A stretch of 61,102 nt of DNA from Candidatus Yanofskybacteria bacterium RIFCSPHIGHO2_01_FULL_43_32. GTDB lineage: Bacteria; Patescibacteriota; Minisyncoccia; 2-02-FULL-40-12; GWA2-44-9. The notes under the pieces were generated by a model. It searched no databases. It was not told the DNA's origin and worked only from the letters and a program-made list of their open reading frames with translations. This document shows positions 726 through 31,494 of the stretch, piece by piece (position 1 is the stretch's first letter; each line of letters begins with the position of its first letter). The stretch is from contig MGJF01000004.1 of the NCBI GenBank assembly GCA_001794125.1, positions 1 through 61,102 on the forward strand, in the 5' to 3' direction. The position numbers and the translations under genes were made by a program.

Positions 726-1511
726 ATGGAAGCGAGGACTCAAAAACAGCTAATAGCGGGACTTATATTTATTTTAATATTGAGCGGAATCGGCTACGGT
801 ATCTATTCAATATTGGCGCCGAAAATTTCCTGCACGGATAGGATAAAGAACGGCAAAGAAGAGGGGGTTGATTGCGGTATTTTAGCCTGCGGCAAAGCAT
901 GTGAACCGGCGATAATGCCGATAAATATAATTTCAAGCCAGTTTTTCCAGATCGGGCCCGGCGACTATGATTTTGTGACGCAGCTTTCTAATCCCAATGT
1001 TTCTTACGGCGCTTCCCGGCTGGAATATAGCCTGGGTTCAATTTCAGGCTCATCTTATATTCTGCCCGGTCAGACAAAATGGTTAGTTCTTACCGCCTTG
1101 AAAATTCCCGACGGAATTCAGGATGTTCAGCTTGTAATTAAAAATGCTCAATGGGAAAAATTAGATATGCCGGACAACACGGTGAACCTTACAATAAGAA
1201 GAAAGGATTATCACTCTGTTCAGAAGGGCACGCAGTTGGATGCGGTTCTTTACAACGATTCCAATTTTGATTTTGACAAAATAGACGTAGCGGTTATATT
1301 ATTCGACGATACGGGGAGTATTGTCGGAGTGAACAGAACGGATATCAGGACATTTCTTGCCAGGTCGGAAAGAGGGTTCAATGTTGTCTGGCCGTTTGTC
1401 CTACCGGGGCCCGCCGTGAGACAGGATGTGGAAGCATCAACCAATCTGTTCGAAAATTCTAATTTTATAAAAAGCTATGGCTCTCAAGAAAAGTTTCAGA
1501 AATTCTATTAG
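726..1511 (+). CDS. membrane-anchored hypothetical protein with Cys-rich motif (CTDRIKNGKEEGVDCG)
   Basis: N-terminal TM helix follows Met at 726; the ORF extension to 540 runs through the MITE and is probably spurious. Confidence 0.75.
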   Translation: MEARTQKQLIAGLIFILILSGIGYGIYSILAPKISCTDRIKNGKEEGVDCGILACGKACEPAIMPINIISSQFFQIGPGDYDFVTQLSNPNVSYGASRLEYSLGSISGSSYILPGQTKWLVLTALKIPDGIQDVQLVIKNAQWEKLDMPDNTVNLTIRRKDYHSVQKGTQLDAVLYNDSNFDFDKIDVAVILFDDTGSIVGVNRTDIRTFLARSERGFNVVWPFVLPGPAVRQDVEASTNLFENSNFIKSYGSQEKFQKFY

Positions 1512-2610
1512 ACAAGGGCTGACGAAAAAACATCTTATAAGAGCCCTCTTTAAGGAAATTGACCTTCCTTTGTTTGCCGCGGTAGCGGCTGTTTCTTTGT
1601 TCAGTGTTCTGAATATGTACGGCATTAACGGATTCGGACCGCTTTTCAAGAAACAGATAATTTTTGTGGCTATAGGAATGGCGGTGATGATATCGTTTTC
1701 TTTTTTTAATTACCGTTATTTGAAAAACTATTCCTTTCCTGTTCTGTTCTTTTATTTTGTGTCGATTATTCTTCTGCTTTTAACTTTTTATTCCCGTTCG
1801 GTCAGGGGGGTAAATGCCTGGATAGTTCTCGGTCAATTCACTTTTGAGCCGGCTGAATTGGCGAAGCTGATGCTTATCGTCCTTATGGCAAAATATTTTT
1901 CCCAGAGGCATGTTCACATCAATCAATTCAGGCATGTGTTGGTTGCCGGTATTTATTATGGTATCCCTGTTTTAATAATTTTGGCTCAGCCCGACCTGGG
2001 TTCGGCCATAATTTTTTCTTTAATATGGATAAGCATTCTTGCCGCTGTAGGCATCAACAAGAAACACTTTTTTCTTTTGGTCATTTTGGCCGTGATTGTT
2101 TCTTACAGTTCGTGGATTTTTGTTTTAAAGCCATATCAGAAAGACAGACTCCTCACTTTTGTGAATCCCGGTGGTGATCCAAGAGGAAGCGGATATAATT
2201 TGATTCAATCCAAAATTGCCATCGGTTCCGGCTACTGGTTCGGAAACGGCTTGGGGAAGGGTTCACAAACAACATTGGGATTTTTACCGGAATCCCACAA
2301 TGACTTTGTTTTTGCCGCCACAGCCGAGCAATTCGGTTTTGTCGGAGCTGGTTTGGTGGTAGCTGCGATTTTATTTATTGTGTATAGAATATTGAGCGTA
2401 GGAAGGGCGGTTGTTTCTAATTTCGGTAAAATATTTTCAATCGGAATGGCGGTATTTATTTTTGCCCACGCCCTCATTGGCGCTTCCGTGAATATCGGTC
2501 TGATGCCGGTGACGGGAATTCCATTTCCGTTTCTAAGTTACGGAGGAAGCTACCTCATTTCTATTATGAGCGGGTTGGGTATTTTGCAGAGTATTAAAAG
2601 GTATGGATAG
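1477..2610 (+). CDS. rodA: rod shape-determining SEDS protein (RodA/FtsW family)
   Basis: multi-TM; motifs FEPAELAK, QPDLGSA, GYNLIQSKIAIGSG, LPESHNDF, PFLSYGGS; exact start uncertain. Confidence 0.9.
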   Translation: MALKKSFRNSIRQGLTKKHLIRALFKEIDLPLFAAVAAVSLFSVLNMYGINGFGPLFKKQIIFVAIGMAVMISFSFFNYRYLKNYSFPVLFFYFVSIILLLLTFYSRSVRGVNAWIVLGQFTFEPAELAKLMLIVLMAKYFSQRHVHINQFRHVLVAGIYYGIPVLIILAQPDLGSAIIFSLIWISILAAVGINKKHFFLLVILAVIVSYSSWIFVLKPYQKDRLLTFVNPGGDPRGSGYNLIQSKIAIGSGYWFGNGLGKGSQTTLGFLPESHNDFVFAATAEQFGFVGAGLVVAAILFIVYRILSVGRAVVSNFGKIFSIGMAVFIFAHALIGASVNIGLMPVTGIPFPFLSYGGSYLISIMSGLGILQSIKRYG

Positions 2611-2625
2611 TCGCTCCCGCCATCT

Positions 2626-2771
2626 GAATAGTTCACATAACCTCCATGCATGACTGCGGGGTGCACTTTTTTAAAATATTACTAATTTTAAAAAAGCACA
2701 CGCCCTCCGCCGGTTGCTTAGTATGCAGCTTACACTTGGCAATAAAGGGTCAAACTATTCTGAAATAAAGT
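2626..2771 (+). repeat. long-hairpin element E, copy 1
   Basis: gaatagttcac-a-aacc...AT-rich-loop hairpin...ccggttg...tggcaat...caaact; 6 copies in window. Confidence 0.85.
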
Positions 2772-2825
2772 GCTATCTGAGCTGTTGATTTTATGAGGAA
2801 ATGGTGGAATAATCAAAAACATTAA

Positions 2826-3227
2826 ATGACGATAAACCCCATTGCACAAGCGATTGTTGATTGGACGAGGCTCAAAATAAAGCTTCATTTTTCAGACCGT
2901 GTTATCTATTTTAAGGAAAAACAAATTTGGTGGATAGCTATCGGACAGAATATTGGAGATGAACAGAATGGAAAGAATTCTAACTTTGAAAGGCCAGTTC
3001 TGGTACTAAAGAAATTTAACATGAATATGTTTTTGGGTGTCCCTATTTCTACTAAGATTAAAGACGACCAATATAAACATATCTTTACCAATAATGGCAC
3101 TCAATTCTCCGCAAATTTATCTCAAATTCGAGTTTTTAGTAGCAAAAGACTTTTACGCAAAGTTGGAGTTATGGAAAATTCTGATTTTGAACAAGTGAAA
3201 GAGGTGCTTAATAGTGGGATAAAATAA
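2826..3227 (+). CDS. PemK/MazF-family endoribonuclease toxin (orphan)
   Basis: IWWIAIGQNIGDEQNGK...RPVLVLKK...GVPIST...QIRVFSSKRL, typical PemK-like motifs; no adjacent antitoxin ORF. Confidence 0.85.
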   Translation: MTINPIAQAIVDWTRLKIKLHFSDRVIYFKEKQIWWIAIGQNIGDEQNGKNSNFERPVLVLKKFNMNMFLGVPISTKIKDDQYKHIFTNNGTQFSANLSQIRVFSSKRLLRKVGVMENSDFEQVKEVLNSGIK

Positions 3228-3279
3228 CGGCTCCCCCTTGCGGGGGAGCCTCGGAACCCTATTTCCAGGGTCAAAATGT
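3221..3279 (-). ncRNA. candidate small RNA convergent on pemK-like gene
   Basis: minus-strand TTGACT(3310-3315)-N18-TATACT(3286-3291) promoter, 5-bp hairpin, then GGCTCCCCC-GCAA-GGGGGAGCC hairpin plus T-rich tail. Confidence 0.55.
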
Positions 3280-3417
3280 ATTTAGAGTATAGCATGTCAA
3301 GCGGTCGGTAGTCAATAGTTATCAACAATTCGTCAAAGTGACATAAAAGCAATGGGACTACGATTTTGACTCTGCCCATCTTTAGATATATAATCATGAA
3401 AAAGATTTAACGTTTTT

Positions 3418-4104
3418 ATGAAATTAAATATTAAAGAACTACTCGATTTTCTTGATGATAAGAAAGATTCCCAAATGGGTGATGCCAATGCCATAATTGC
3501 TGTTCTCGGTGAGGATTTAAACGCTTCTGCATATAAACATTTTAGAGGAGGTAAGGTAGAAATTCTTAATGATTCAGTTCTTCCCGGTACTAATAAGGGT
3601 AAAAGATTAGATCGATGGATATTAGATAAGACTAATAATAATTTATTTCAATGTGAGATTAAGAATTGGGCAGCAACCGCCATTGGAGGTAAGTCATTGA
3701 AATCTGATGCAAGTATTGAAGAAACTAAAAAGATTGTTGAATATTACTGGAAACGCGAATTAAATAACAACCTTTCAAGCAAGGGGGAACACCCAAATGG
3801 TGTTACCAAGGTATTGCTTAAAATGAAACTACCTGACAAGCACAGTAAAATAAAGGTTCAACCGCTACTTATCTATTGGATGCCAATTTCTTCAGATATA
3901 GACGGGTTACATCCATTATCTGTTGTTTCTGTAAAATCACTTCATTTACCAATGGTGACTGAATTTTCAAAACTTTATGTTTTTTCTGTGTCCCTATACC
4001 TTCGCCAGTTGTATAAAAACGGGAAGGGGCAAAAACTTATTGACATAGACACACCACATTTTGAACATAGAATTAAAATATTAAATAAATTGGGGGATAA
4101 ATAA
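3418..4104 (+). CDS. putative PD-(D/E)XK nuclease-like protein
   Basis: RLDRWI...FQCEIKNW resembles the D...E-x-K catalytic motif; own TTGACT-N17-TATAAT promoter. Confidence 0.5.
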   Translation: MKLNIKELLDFLDDKKDSQMGDANAIIAVLGEDLNASAYKHFRGGKVEILNDSVLPGTNKGKRLDRWILDKTNNNLFQCEIKNWAATAIGGKSLKSDASIEETKKIVEYYWKRELNNNLSSKGEHPNGVTKVLLKMKLPDKHSKIKVQPLLIYWMPISSDIDGLHPLSVVSVKSLHLPMVTEFSKLYVFSVSLYLRQLYKNGKGQKLIDIDTPHFEHRIKILNKLGDK

Positions 4105-8129: not shown

Positions 8130-11100
8130 ATGGACTTATCAAGCATAAAATTAAAGATTGCTTCTCCAGACGATATAATGTCATGGTCATATGGAGAGGT
8201 GACAAAACCGGAAACCATCAACTACCGGACCCAGAAACCGGAGAGAGACGGTTTGTTTTCCGAGTCAATTTTCGGCCCCACGAAAGACTGGGAATGTTAT
8301 TGCGGCAAATATAAGAGAATCCGGTATAAAGGAATCATCTGCGACAGATGCGGAGTTGAAGTAACGCGCTCAATCGTCAGAAGAGAAAGAATGGGCCACA
8401 TTAAACTTGCCGCCCCCGTTGCTCACATCTGGTTCTTAAGAGGCGTGCCTTCCAAAGTTGCCACTGTTTTAGGGGTTTCCTTGCCTGAACTGGAAAGAGT
8501 GATTTATTTCGCGAGCTATATCATTACAAGCGTGAATGAAGACCTGAAAGCCGAAGCGATGAAGAGGATTGAGTCGGAATTCAAATCCAAACTAAAGAAC
8601 TCCAAGAATGCCGGCGAAGAGGAATCACTGAAAGAATTAAAAGACCGCGAGAAGAATAATTTAAAAAATATGCTGAAGTATCAGATAATTTCCGAACTTG
8701 ATTTCAGGGACCTTTCTTCCAAGTACGGCGAAGTGTTTGAGGCCTCGATCGGAGCGGAAGCGGTCAGAAAACTTTTGGAAGAGCTGGACATGGAAGAAAT
8801 GCTTTCCGAATTGGAAGGAGAAGCCAAGAACGAATCAAATCCTTTGGAAATAAGAAAAATATCAAGGCGGCTCAAGTACCTGAAAGGAATGATAAAGGCT
8901 GGAATTCGTCCGGAGTGGGCGATAATCACCATTCTCCCGGTCATTCCGCCGGCATTAAGACCGATGGTTCCTTTGGACGGAGGCCGTTACGCCACTTCAG
9001 ATTTAAATGACTTATACAGGAGAGTAATAAACAGAAACAACCGTTTAAAGCATTTGCTTGAATTAAAAGCGCCTGAAGTCATCACCAAAAACGAAAAAAG
9101 AATGCTTCAGGAAGCCGTTGACGCCTTGATAGACAACTCAATGAGAAGGGGACAGATAACCACTGCCGCTTCAACCGGCCAGAAGAGGGCCTTAAAATCT
9201 TTGGCTGACATGCTCAAAGGAAAACAGGGCCGGTTCAGGCAGAATCTGCTGGGCAAAAGGGTGGATTATTCGGGAAGGAGCGTTATCGTTATCGGTCCGG
9301 AATTAAACTTAGCCGAATGCGGATTGCCCAAACAAATGGCTTTGGAGCTGTTCAAGCCGTTTGTTGTCGGAATTTTAATAAGAAAAGAACTTGCCCATAA
9401 TATTAAATCAGCGGGCCGGTTGATAGAACAGGAGACCGCGGATGTGTGGGCCGCTTTGGAAGAAGCGATGAAAAACAAATTAGTTTTGTTGAACCGCGCT
9501 CCGACCCTGCACCGTTTATCCGTGCAGGCGTTTGAGCCGATTCTTATAGAGGGTAAAGCCATTAAAATCCCGGCCTTGCCTACGCACGCTTTCAACGCCG
9601 ATTTCGACGGAGACCAGATGGCCGTTCATTTGCCGCTGACGATTGAAGCCCAGAGAGAAGCTAAGGAATTAATGCTTGCCAGCCACGGAGTTTTGAAACC
9701 GGCCACGGGAGAGCCTGTCGCTTCGCCAAGCCACGACGTGTCTTTCGGTGTTTACTATTTGACCAGCATGTCAAACGGCGCAAGAGGAGAAGGCAAGACA
9801 TTTTCCTCGCGGTATGAAGCGCTCTTGTCTTTTGAGAACGACCTTACCGATTTAAGAGCTAAAATAAAAGTTCCGAACCCTGACCATCAAATCGACGATA
9901 GTCAGCCGAAAATGATAGAGACGACTCCGGGCCGCATGATATTCAACAAGGCCTTGCCGAAAGGACATGTGTTCGTGAACAGAACTTTGACCAAACCGGA
10001 CCTGAAAGTTATCGGTTCCGACATCTGGGACGAATTTGGAAAAGAAGCTACTGTTGTTTTTCTGGATAAAGTAAAAGACCTCGGATTTCATTATGCCACA
10101 ATATCAGGCATTTCATGGGGCATGAATGATTTGAGAATTCCGGTTGAAAAGCCCGGTATCATTAAAGAGGCCGACCAAAAAATAGAAGAAAATAAAGCAT
10201 TATACGAAGACGGTCTGCTTACCGAATATGAGAGGCGTTCAAAAGCAATCGAAATATGGAATACCACCAAATCAAAACTCTCCGTTCTCGTTAAGAAACA
10301 GCTTAACCCCGATGATTCCGCTTTTATGCTCGTTGATTCCAAATCCAGAGGAACCTGGGGAACATTGGACCAGATGATGGGAATGAGAGGTATTTTCGCC
10401 AATCCGGCGGGGGAACTTATTGAATTGCCGGTGAGAAATTCTCTTAAAGAGGGCTTAACTTCGCTTGAATATTTCATATCCACTCACGGAGCCAGAAAAG
10501 GATTGGTGGATACCGCTTTGAAAACCGCCACTGCCGGATATTTGACGAGGCGTTTGGTTGATGTGGCGCAGGACATCGTCGTTACCGAAGCAGATTGCAA
10601 AGATAAAGAAGGATTTGTAATGCATGCCGAGGACGGCAAGGTAAGCGGTGAGACCTTGGGCAGAAGAGTGAAGGGTCGGGCTGTGCTGGAAGATATAATC
10701 GGACTCGACGGTGAGGTTATTGTTAAGAAAAATAAAATAGTAGATAAAGAATCAGCCAAGAAAATTGAAACTTTAGGATTAAAGACCATCAAGGTCCGCT
10801 CGGCCATAAAGTGCAAGGCCTATACCGGTATTTGCCAATTATGCTACGGATACGACCTTTCCAAGAACGAACTGGTTGATATAGGCGAAGCGGTCGGTAT
10901 TGTTACCGCCCAGGCAATCGGAGAACCGGGAACCCAGCTGACGATGAGAACCTTCCATACCGGAGGCGTTGCCGGCGGAGCCGATATCACCATGGGTTTG
11001 CCCCGGGTTGAAGAAATTTTTGAAGCCCGTCCGCCGACATTCAAAGCGCTGGTCGCTGATGTCGACGGTAAGGTTTTGGCGGTGGAAGACAGAGGCAAAC

Positions 11101-11717
11101 AGAAAGTCTTAGCCGTTGAAGTCGCCCCTTCGGCAGGCTCAGGGCAAGCGGGGGAGAAGAGAGAATACCTCGTGTCTCCTAATATTACTGTTACCGTGGC
11201 GGCCGGCGATTTAGTTACTGTCGGCCAGCAATTGAGCGAAGGCCATGTTGACCTCAAAGAATTATTTAAAACTACCGACAGTATTGATTTAGTTGCAAGA
11301 TATATCATCAAGGAAGTACAGGCAATTTATTCGCCGACCGGAGACAGTATTAACGACAAGCACGTTGAGCTGATAGTCAGACAGATGTTCTCAAGAGTGA
11401 AAGTCCTTGATTCCGGAGACACTGATCTCTTGGCTGGCGATACCGTTGAAAAGAGGACCGCCTGGATTGAGAATGAAAAAGCTAAAGACAACAAAAAGAT
11501 AGAAGCGACATTTGAACAATTATTGCTTGGTATCACCAAAGTATCTTTGACCACCGACAGTTTCCTCTCGGCCGCTTCCTTCCAGGAAACAGCCAGAGTC
11601 CTTATCGATAGCGCAATCCTCGGCAAAGAAGATTACTTAAGAGGTTTGAAAGAGAATGTTATTATTGGACGGTTGATACCGGCGGGGACGGGGTTCGGCA
11701 ACGAAATGGAGGAATAA
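8130..11717 (+). CDS. rpoC: DNA-directed RNA polymerase subunit beta'
   Basis: NADFDGDQM catalytic motif, N-terminal Zn finger, GEPGTQLTMRTFH. Confidence 0.99.
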   Translation: MDLSSIKLKIASPDDIMSWSYGEVTKPETINYRTQKPERDGLFSESIFGPTKDWECYCGKYKRIRYKGIICDRCGVEVTRSIVRRERMGHIKLAAPVAHIWFLRGVPSKVATVLGVSLPELERVIYFASYIITSVNEDLKAEAMKRIESEFKSKLKNSKNAGEEESLKELKDREKNNLKNMLKYQIISELDFRDLSSKYGEVFEASIGAEAVRKLLEELDMEEMLSELEGEAKNESNPLEIRKISRRLKYLKGMIKAGIRPEWAIITILPVIPPALRPMVPLDGGRYATSDLNDLYRRVINRNNRLKHLLELKAPEVITKNEKRMLQEAVDALIDNSMRRGQITTAASTGQKRALKSLADMLKGKQGRFRQNLLGKRVDYSGRSVIVIGPELNLAECGLPKQMALELFKPFVVGILIRKELAHNIKSAGRLIEQETADVWAALEEAMKNKLVLLNRAPTLHRLSVQAFEPILIEGKAIKIPALPTHAFNADFDGDQMAVHLPLTIEAQREAKELMLASHGVLKPATGEPVASPSHDVSFGVYYLTSMSNGARGEGKTFSSRYEALLSFENDLTDLRAKIKVPNPDHQIDDSQPKMIETTPGRMIFNKALPKGHVFVNRTLTKPDLKVIGSDIWDEFGKEATVVFLDKVKDLGFHYATISGISWGMNDLRIPVEKPGIIKEADQKIEENKALYEDGLLTEYERRSKAIEIWNTTKSKLSVLVKKQLNPDDSAFMLVDSKSRGTWGTLDQMMGMRGIFANPAGELIELPVRNSLKEGLTSLEYFISTHGARKGLVDTALKTATAGYLTRRLVDVAQDIVVTEADCKDKEGFVMHAEDGKVSGETLGRRVKGRAVLEDIIGLDGEVIVKKNKIVDKESAKKIETLGLKTIKVRSAIKCKAYTGICQLCYGYDLSKNELVDIGEAVGIVTAQAIGEPGTQLTMRTFHTGGVAGGADITMGLPRVEEIFEARPPTFKALVADVDGKVLAVEDRGKQKVLAVEVAPSAGSGQAGEKREYLVSPNITVTVAAGDLVTVGQQLSEGHVDLKELFKTTDSIDLVARYIIKEVQAIYSPTGDSINDKHVELIVRQMFSRVKVLDSGDTDLLAGDTVEKRTAWIENEKAKDNKKIEATFEQLLLGITKVSLTTDSFLSAASFQETARVLIDSAILGKEDYLRGLKENVIIGRLIPAGTGFGNEMEE
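11126..11145 (+). repeat. in-frame CCTTCG..GGCTCAGG-family palindromic element in rpoC (encodes PSAGSG)
   Basis: matches copies in ssb, groEL and at 54658. Confidence 0.7.
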
Positions 11718-31089: not shown

Positions 31090-31494
31090 ATGAAAAAAAT
31101 ATTAATCGTCGAAGATGAGGAGGTTTTGCTGAATGTCCTGAAGGACAGGTTTGAAGCCGACGACTGGGAAGTTTCGGTTGCCCATGACGGCGAAGAAGCC
31201 ATTCAAGCCATAGAAAAAGAGTCTTCAAAATCTAAATTTGATTTGGTTCTGCTCGATTTGCTGATGCCTAAGAAAGACGGATTTTCGGTGTTGAGAGACA
31301 TTAAAAACAACCCGGAACTCAAAAACCTTTCAATTATCGTCTTATCTAATTTAGGCGGAGACGAAGATATCAAAAAGGCTTTGGCATTGGGAGCGAAAGA
31401 TTACTTCGTGAAAACCCAGCACCCGATGAGTGAAATAGTGGAGAAGGCAAAAAAATACAAATCCGGCGGCGCGAGCGCAAAGACCAAGAATTAA
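31090..31494 (+). CDS. single-domain response regulator
   Basis: ILIVEDE, LLDLLMP, LSN, YFVK. Confidence 0.93.
   Translation: MKKILIVEDEEVLLNVLKDRFEADDWEVSVAHDGEEAIQAIEKESSKSKFDLVLLDLLMPKKDGFSVLRDIKNNPELKNLSIIVLSNLGGDEDIKKALALGAKDYFVKTQHPMSEIVEKAKKYKSGGASAKTKN

Follow-up and report, generated by a model that had tools for sequence, protein, structure and literature searches.

INTRODUCTION

The MazF/PemK endoribonucleases are textbook type II toxins, the family of the toxin–antitoxin (TA) systems MazEF, PemIK, Kis-Kid and EndoAI-EndoA. Endoribonuclease toxins without a protein antitoxin are known from type III systems (ToxIN, AbiQ/antiQ, CptIN, TenpIN), in which a small structured RNA adjoins the toxin gene and inhibits the protein directly via specific unpaired nucleotides. 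In the type I systems TxpA/RatA, BsrG/SR4 and BsrE/SR5, a small RNA (sRNA) with a strong promoter is transcribed convergently and overlaps the toxin gene at the 3' ends; type I toxins are as a rule small hydrophobic peptides, to which the nuclease toxins of SymE/SymR and RalR/RalA are exceptions. Small-RNA antitoxins have also been raised as a possible explanation of abundant solo toxins (Makarova et al. 2009, PMC2701414). Here, we analysed a PemK/MazF-family toxin gene in a 61,102-nucleotide (nt) stretch of DNA, contig MGJF01000004.1 of Candidatus Yanofskybacteria bacterium RIFCSPHIGHO2_01_FULL_43_32 (Patescibacteria, candidate phyla radiation, CPR), which as a whole we call the window. On the opposite strand, the toxin gene faces the gene of a small RNA of two hairpins, and we found that this RNA gene accompanies nearly all homologous toxin genes that we compared.

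In databases, such proteins go by the name 'type II toxin-antitoxin system PemK/MazF family toxin', though no protein antitoxin is present, and the family gives the idea of solo toxins controlled by small RNAs a concrete, testable and family-wide case. Leaving aside Shen et al. 2016, which is considered below, we found no paper linking MazF/PemK toxins to a conserved convergent sRNA, in CPR or otherwise. We consider it likely that the RNA is the antitoxin, by whichever route it acts. If true, CPR bacteria, whose known regulatory repertoire is very small, would gain an RNA-controlled RNase, an RNA family not contained in Rfam would be added, and CJpv3, an sRNA of a Campylobacter jejuni plasmid, would obtain a function.

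RESULTS AND DISCUSSION

A convergent two-hairpin RNA gene is conserved at the toxin loci

Downstream of the toxin gene, the original prediction had placed a minus-strand TTGACT-N18-TGcTATACT promoter driving about 59 nt with a small hairpin and a GCAA-capped 9-bp terminator hairpin. We find all of these elements (Table 1): the promoter spans 3315..3286 and scores 10/12 plus the extended −10 TG, and the RNA comes to about 57 nt, with a 5' hairpin (hp2), an unpaired CCGA junction and the terminator hairpin (hp1). Its transcription start site (TSS) is placed at A3279, 7 nt past the −10 element, a spacing equal to that of the mapped TSS of a plasmid homologue described below, and its 3' end is placed in the U-tract. 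The sequence from 3282 to 3215 (−) folds with −31.1 kcal/mol (z=−3.84), which none of 200 shuffles equalled. Directly 3' of hp1, GUUAUUUUAU runs over the toxin stop codon. The overlap between terminator and stop codon, which had also been predicted, holds for the U-tract (3228..3219, −), which covers the stop codon (3225..3227) and the last codons, and does not hold for the stem, which begins 2 nt past the stop. Counted in the window by itself, promoter-like sites number 8, no excess over the 6.5 expected from shuffles. Because one such site is not significant by itself, we tested conservation, and it is from the other genomes, not from the window count, that the sRNA promoter draws its significance.

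The database holds 238 close relatives of the toxin, nearly all from Patescibacteria/CPR; at least 561 species-level genomes encode a relative, and a profile search returned 1876 clusters at 50% identity (E≤1e-10). For the locus comparison, 80 loci were fetched, which with the window makes 81, most of them from Patescibacteria/CPR; all CPR loci stem from metagenome assemblies. A convergent two-hairpin RNA gene is present in 80/81. A covariance model built from related loci (R1) abuts the toxin stop on the opposite strand in 70 of them, with scores of up to 62 bits, and ten further loci carry a variant two-hairpin RNA. The one locus without the RNA, L022, has a toxin with a disrupted C-terminus. 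In the window, R1 matches 3222..3280 (−) with 51.2 bits (E=1.5e-13), its sole convincing match in 61 kb; a weak match at 9331..9365 (+) of 19 bits, which covers only hp2 and the tails and lies inside a long open reading frame (ORF; 8130..11717), was judged to be a chance match.

Read in the minus sense, the loci share an architecture that starts with TTGAC(A/T), a 16–18-nt spacer, TAnnnT and 5 further nt, followed by (U)ACAAAUGG, a variable hairpin, CUCCGAGA, a variable GC-rich hairpin and UCGUUUUUU; the median sRNA length is 56 nt. The stems are maintained by compensatory changes in 13/13 modelled pairs (75 sequences), amounting to 161 double-change cells, a number reached by 0/500 shuffles, and in slid controls the covariation is 2–4 times lower. 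One such change, from C-G to U-A in hp2, is seen in a relative (L158) of 88% identity. Altogether, the RNA gene with its covariation is conserved across about 150 loci. Sequence conservation is concentrated between the hairpins: in 74 copies, the four positions of CCGA are conserved to 95/91/99/99%, the flanking pair G63-C149 to 97/93% and G150 to 100%, versus 42–54% in the stem interiors.

A trivial explanation would be that the hairpin is the (bidirectional) terminator of the toxin gene or a + strand element of its 3' untranslated region (UTR), with the minus-strand promoter as a chance match, and the unremarkable number of promoter-like sites in the window is in line with it. The comparison of loci argues against this on several grounds. 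A promoter of at least 9/12 lies at a fixed offset in 85% of 72 copies, versus 0.76% of random positions, and its −10 element ends 3–6 nt 5' of the first model position in most copies. The terminator U-tract lies on the minus strand, and the structure itself is favoured in the minus sense: among the 74 copies, the minus-sense fold beats its complement in 59, by 2.7 kcal/mol on average (p=3.6e-9), the minus sense contains 111 G-U pairs versus 37 in the complement, and the hairpin loops are GNRA or UUCG when read in this direction. Moreover, hp2 covaries although it is not a terminator, and for a homologous RNA the TSS has been mapped and a Northern blot was positive. The terminator-only explanation is thus essentially excluded.

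The elements of a bacterial sRNA gene are therefore in place: a conserved promoter, a covarying structure and a terminator, with a transcript seen for the C. jejuni homologue only. Rfam 15 contained no relevant match at E≤10 for 2400..3600, at the gathering score for the whole window, or at E≤1 for eight related loci; among the models without a match is the one that we take to be named 'pemK motif'. A micro-ORF within the sRNA was dismissed, as it would have to dispense with the AUG of the main clade, which is missing in the clade of the window, and its frame runs through the variable stems. For a possible additional helix that would join the 5' tail to the 3' U-tail, no covariation was seen.

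One toxin subclade (L045, L049, L053, L054, L056, L057, L064, L069 and L076) has the same two-hairpin design with a CCAC(A/G)-like junction in place of CCGA and no clear U-tract after hp1; its metagenome-assembled genomes (MAGs) are labelled Rickettsiales, Proteobacteria or Bacteroidetes. The MAGs of L010, L024, L027, L045, L064 and others are titled 'uncultured Gammaproteobacteria', 'Rickettsia typhi' or 'Bdellovibrionales', labels that may be wrong.

A homologous arrangement is transcribed in Campylobacter jejuni

Is such an RNA made? Homologues of the toxin, found by tblastn, reside on plasmids of Nitratiruptor, Campylobacter, Helicobacter and Bacteroides and in Campylobacter CJIE4 prophages. 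Among them, pVir0047, encoded on plasmid pVir of C. jejuni 81-176, belongs to the family over its full length, including the N-terminal helix described below (hhalign probability 99.4%, E=5e-22, 36% identity). Its 3' side carries a convergent TTGATT-17-TGnTATAAT promoter and a two-hairpin RNA, with a terminator within a few nt of the stop codon, and from the position of the −10 element we predicted the TSS at position 31119 of the pVir record. Differential RNA sequencing had mapped a minus-strand TSS at exactly 31119, with a read height of 16164 versus 28 for the TSS of pVir0047 (Dugar et al. 2013, PMC3656092, Tables S5 and S12). The corresponding sRNA, CJpv3, is a Northern-positive RNA of 77 nt (31119->31043) between pVir0047 and pVir0048; the same study gives it no function and lists pVir0047 as hypothetical (Dugar et al. 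2013, PMC3656092). From this mapped TSS and Northern signal, we conclude that the convergent arrangement yields a real and abundant sRNA, the transcript being that of the C. jejuni homologue.

The plasmid copy of Nitratiruptor follows the same two-hairpin design. R1 gives no match to the Campylobacter and Nitratiruptor copies, and the pVir RNA is not alignable with the CPR model, lacks CCGA and is longer (77 versus about 57 nt), whereas toxin, convergent promoter, two-hairpin RNA and terminator correspond. In three small metatranscriptomes, the window and its relatives had zero coverage; for the toxin gene of L083, one contig of an aquifer metatranscriptome was obtained that extends over the 5' half only.

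The toxin belongs to the MazF family

The Pfam match of the toxin to PF02452 scores 47.3 bits (cutoff 23.1) over residues 32–129. When the family profile was compared with the Protein Data Bank (PDB), the closest solved relative was Bacillus subtilis EndoA/MazF (E=5e-7), and YdcE, MoxT and MazF were also among the matches. An AlphaFold2 model (predicted local distance difference test, pLDDT, 83; predicted template modelling score, pTM, 0.77) retrieved MazF-mt1 and the MazF proteins of Staphylococcus aureus, B. subtilis and Escherichia coli as best Foldseek matches in the PDB, with a probability of 1.00 and query-normalised scores (TMq) of 0.6–0.67 (0.62–0.67 for the first three), which places the model within the SH3-like barrel fold of MazF/Kid. 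The invariant R56 aligns with R25 of B. subtilis MazF, and position 75, Ser or Thr in 27/27 aligned members, with T48; these two we take to be the catalytic residues of the B. subtilis enzyme. Since the protein aligns with MazF over the catalytic Arg and Ser/Thr and the model has the MazF fold, the toxin looks active, and it is probably a functional nuclease.

By sequence and model, the protein is a genuine MazF and not a ToxN or AbiQ protein: PF02452 is its sole Pfam match, and the top 50 Foldseek matches are all MazF, with no ToxN or AbiQ. The analogy to the type III toxins ToxN/AbiQ, on which the original prediction had drawn, does not extend to membership in that class. Indeed, around the toxin gene we found no tandem or direct repeat array and nothing to suggest that the toxin processes the RNA, and the RNA is a single copy that is encoded downstream, on the opposite strand and under its own promoter. 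With canonical MazF proteins the toxin shares family, fold and catalytic positions, and it differs from them by about 25 additional N-terminal residues, which in the model form a helix (residues 5–21) with conserved W13, K17 and H21, absent from canonical MazF.

On its 5' side, the candidate toxin promoter ends 12 nt upstream of the ATG at 2826 and a Shine-Dalgarno sequence is absent, which suggests a nearly leaderless toxin mRNA. The hexamers of this promoter are retained in a 92%-identical relative (L157), and many toxin homologues likewise have A/T-rich upstream regions without a Shine-Dalgarno sequence.

The toxin has an RNA partner and no conserved protein partner

As had been predicted, there is no antitoxin ORF on either side of the toxin gene in the window. 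The 215-nt spacer on its 5' side contains only a non-conserved ORF of 40 amino acids (aa), the rodA terminator and a weak promoter-like site, and the 228-aa gene downstream is not kept beside homologous toxins in the 81 loci. Across these loci, neighbour clustering and Pfam scans of the small upstream ORFs found no gene for a MazE, PemI, AbrB or ribbon-helix-helix partner; the neighbouring proteins are unrelated to one another, the biggest neighbour cluster comprising 5/81 loci, and the small upstream ORFs of ten loci encode an integrase fragment, a GTPase fragment, BolA, ferredoxin or nothing recognisable. On these grounds, we ruled out a protein antitoxin as the partner.

In the opposite direction, we scanned metagenome contigs by the RNA pattern alone and obtained 67 matches with room on the contig for a neighbour, 44 of which adjoin a convergent MazF-like ORF. 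The remaining 23 comprise 12 chance matches (at most 26 bits), one that has a toxin gene after all, three beside decayed toxin genes and seven orphan RNAs. This leaves 55 genuine sRNAs, 45 of which adjoin an intact toxin gene and 10 do not. Thus, RNA and toxin form a linked pair, ASYMMETRICALLY: the toxin is almost never found without the RNA, and the RNA outlives the toxin, which would be the pattern expected of an antitoxin. Together with the covarying RNA gene, the missing protein partner and CJpv3, this linkage strengthens the proposal of an orphan MazF-type toxin with a convergent structured RNA as its candidate antitoxin, made originally from the window sequence.

As to the individual cases, among the decayed toxin genes that of L100 carries a frameshift, and those of L085 and L093 retain no more than the C-terminal third, each beside an intact sRNA. 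The orphans (L145, L152, L086, L098, L117, L106 and L090) have a good promoter and no toxin gene, and more copies of this kind lie at L034:5051-5124, L050:3077-3141 and L010:4461-4524, the last being a second copy just past the first. Several genomes hold more than one module (L019/L034, L010/L062, L042, L007). Carriage of the CPR-type RNA by phages was considered and dropped, as the single viral match to the pattern was a chance match and R1 had no match in L156 at E≤1.

The tight co-inheritance and the conserved unpaired motif would also fit if the two genes were no TA pair at all, and the MazF-fold protein and the sRNA formed a functional ribonucleoprotein or an enzyme–substrate pair, with the RNA as a cofactor, a specificity factor, a processed product or part of some other regulation. 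The toxicity of the protein is itself inferred, and the N-terminal helix with W13/K17/H21, which canonical MazF lacks, would be in keeping with this explanation. We nevertheless regard this explanation as improbable: the distribution is patchy, multi-copy and non-syntenic as in mobile TA modules, plasmids and prophages carry the module, the RNA persists where toxin genes decay, and the catalytic residues are kept.

Possible modes of action of the RNA

How might the RNA act as an antitoxin? We propose that the + strand gene would make a catalytically competent MazF-family endoribonuclease, and that the convergent minus-strand gene would supply, from its near-consensus promoter, an abundant RNA of about 57 nt whose two rigid, tetraloop-capped hairpins present a short 5' tail (ACA plus A/U) and the invariant CCGA junction. 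As a structured pseudo-substrate or an inhibitor, the RNA could then bind the MazF dimer, and the RNase would be set free once the labile RNA is lost. The logic of such a system would be type III-like, but with an RNA that is single-copy and independently transcribed. Toxicity, neutralisation and direct binding are what we infer here; direct binding to the protein as the main route of the antitoxin RNA is a reading to which we lean tentatively, with slightly less than even confidence, because the CCGA junction is invariant and no base-pairing target explains it. The contrast between an invariant unpaired junction and freely varying stem interiors, and the rigid capped hairpins, support it.

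Candidate pairing targets within the toxin mRNA were examined in turn. For the toxin 5' region and a Shine-Dalgarno sequence, the duplex energies of cognate and non-cognate pairs are equal (p=0.35), and CTCGGAG-type k-mers are absent from the toxin 5' regions. The best duplex sites of the junction cluster at the conserved 'SLG' codons; as codon usage there equals the background, this cluster reflects amino-acid conservation. The idea that the 3' UTR of the toxin mRNA folds back to its 5' end was rejected for want of complementary k-mers. Complementarity to the toxin mRNA arises only if the mRNA passes hp1; neither the 5' region nor the ORF pairs with the sRNA.

This last condition leads to an explanation akin to type I, with the logic of TxpA/RatA and BsrG/SR4. 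Here, the toxin mRNA would read through hp1 and hp2 and form a duplex with the sRNA at its 3' end, and either the duplex is cut (e.g. by RNase III) or convergent transcription interferes, so that little toxin is made. The convergent abutting arrangement is invariant, with a modelled sRNA 3' end that overlaps the stop codon in 52/71 loci, mostly by 1–2 nt. Several observations count for antisense pairing and weigh against direct binding. The convergent layout is kept even where the RNA has diverged, as in Campylobacter, Nitratiruptor and the variant clade, where CCGA is missing and R1 finds no match; the arrangement, and hence the antisense overlap, would then matter more than the motif. In the window, no U-tract follows hp1 on the + strand, and the same is true of most loci, so that the toxin mRNA probably reads into the RNA gene and becomes complementary to it. 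A pVir pair with an sRNA antitoxin, cjrA/cjpT, a possible precedent in which cjpT may be pVir0047, was reportedly described by Shen et al. 2016 and classed as type I.

On the other hand, an antisense RNA that acts in cis can do without conservation of its primary sequence, but the conservation of CCGA and G150 is 91–100%. Very stable GNRA- or UUCG-capped hairpins make up nearly the whole RNA and would be poor nucleation sites for pairing, a few loci (L003, L074 and others) have a separate bidirectional terminator or a spacer of 30–97 nt between stop codon and sRNA, and orphan and tandem extra copies of the sRNA occur. We therefore judge antisense control to be rather unlikely as the main route.

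The classical type I systems share with the module a strongly promoted, convergent sRNA that meets the toxin gene 3' end to 3' end, and an RNA that is probably in large excess, going by the TSS reads of pVir. They differ in the toxin, here a soluble RNase instead of a small membrane peptide, and in the sRNA, here short, nearly all tetraloop-capped hairpin and equipped with an invariant unpaired motif, with an overlap with the ORF of 0–2 nt in most loci. Judged from the sequences, the module behaves like a TA system with an RNA antitoxin and falls outside type II, type III and classical type I: there is no protein partner as in type II and neither a ToxN-family toxin nor a repeat array as in type III; of the classical type I traits, the small-peptide toxin is missing and the overlap is unproven. 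Returning to direct inhibition, one may go further and postulate a new TA class, neither type I, II nor III, in which a genuine MazF is inhibited directly by a single-copy, independently transcribed two-hairpin sRNA with an invariant CCGA junction, spanning some two thousand 50%-identity clusters in Patescibacteria, Campylobacterota and other phyla and maybe wired to DnaA in a quarter of the loci. In this full form the proposal seems doubtful to us; if true, it would explain a large share of the 'orphan type II MazF toxins'. Homologues on plasmids and prophages of cultivable Campylobacterota make the question answerable by ordinary genetics.

Other features of the locus

The coordinates of the features are collected in Table 1. 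The module lies between rodA/ftsW (1477..2610; Pfam FTSW_RODA_SPOVE) on one side and rpoB (from 4969) on the other.

Table 1. Positions of the toxin gene, the sRNA gene and neighbouring features in the window
Feature	Position	Strand	Remarks
Toxin gene	2826..3227	+	133-aa PemK/MazF-family endoribonuclease; Pfam PF02452 PemK_toxin, E=2.7e-12
Candidate toxin promoter	2785..2813	+	TTGATT-17-AATAAT with TG; score 9/12; putative, weak evidence
Small RNA gene	3222..3279	−	About 57 nt; 5'-ACAUUUU-hp2-CCGA-hp1-GUUAUUUU; from covariance model R1 and fold
−35 element of the sRNA promoter	3310..3315	−	TTGACT; TTGAC(A/T) at the same place in about 60/72 copies
Extended −10 element of the sRNA promoter	3286..3294	−	TGcTATACT, with the −10 at 3291..3286; position conserved
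hp2, 5' hairpin	3255..3272	−	7 bp, GACCCUG-GAAA-UAGGGUU; from fold; 4/4 modelled pairs covary
Unpaired junction	3251..3254	−	CCGA, between the hairpins; most conserved part of the sRNA
hp1, terminator hairpin	3229..3250	−	9 bp, GC-rich, GCAA tetraloop; called as intrinsic terminator; compensatory changes in 9/9 modelled pairs
DnaA-box-like 9-mer	3319..3327	+	TTATCAACA; just beyond the −35 element of the sRNA promoter
rodA terminator	2658..2704		Inverted repeat in the spacer upstream of the toxin gene
Downstream gene	3418..4104	+	228 aa; own promoter at 3366..3394, 11/12 consensus

A DnaA-box-like TTATCCACA (at most one mismatch, either orientation) occurs at the same place beside the sRNA promoter in 17/70 loci versus 1.8% of random windows, and the exact TTATCCACA in 6 loci versus 0.24%; the loci with a box include L006, L007, L013, L026, L027 and L018. 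The box may link expression of the sRNA to DnaA or another factor.

The protein of the 228-aa gene downstream had no match in Pfam, NCBIfam, PADLOC or the PDB sequences and shows, by eye, a PD-(D/E)xK-like motif (LDRWILD...QCEIKNW). This gene was inserted together with the toxin module between rodA and rpoB. PADLOC found no known defence system.

On the Nitratiruptor plasmid NZ_AP023062.1 (L159), the gene just past the sRNA promoter (1964..2152) encodes a 62-aa protein that by eye resembles the ribbon-helix-helix (CopG-like) type and could be a plasmid copy control protein or a protein antitoxin in that single replicon. On pVir, the other Northern-validated sRNA, CJpv2, overlaps an opposite-strand ORF of 35 aa (L163:1314..1421, −, with L163 being the + strand of pVir from 25268 onward), and these two form an alternative candidate for the published cjrA/cjpT pair.

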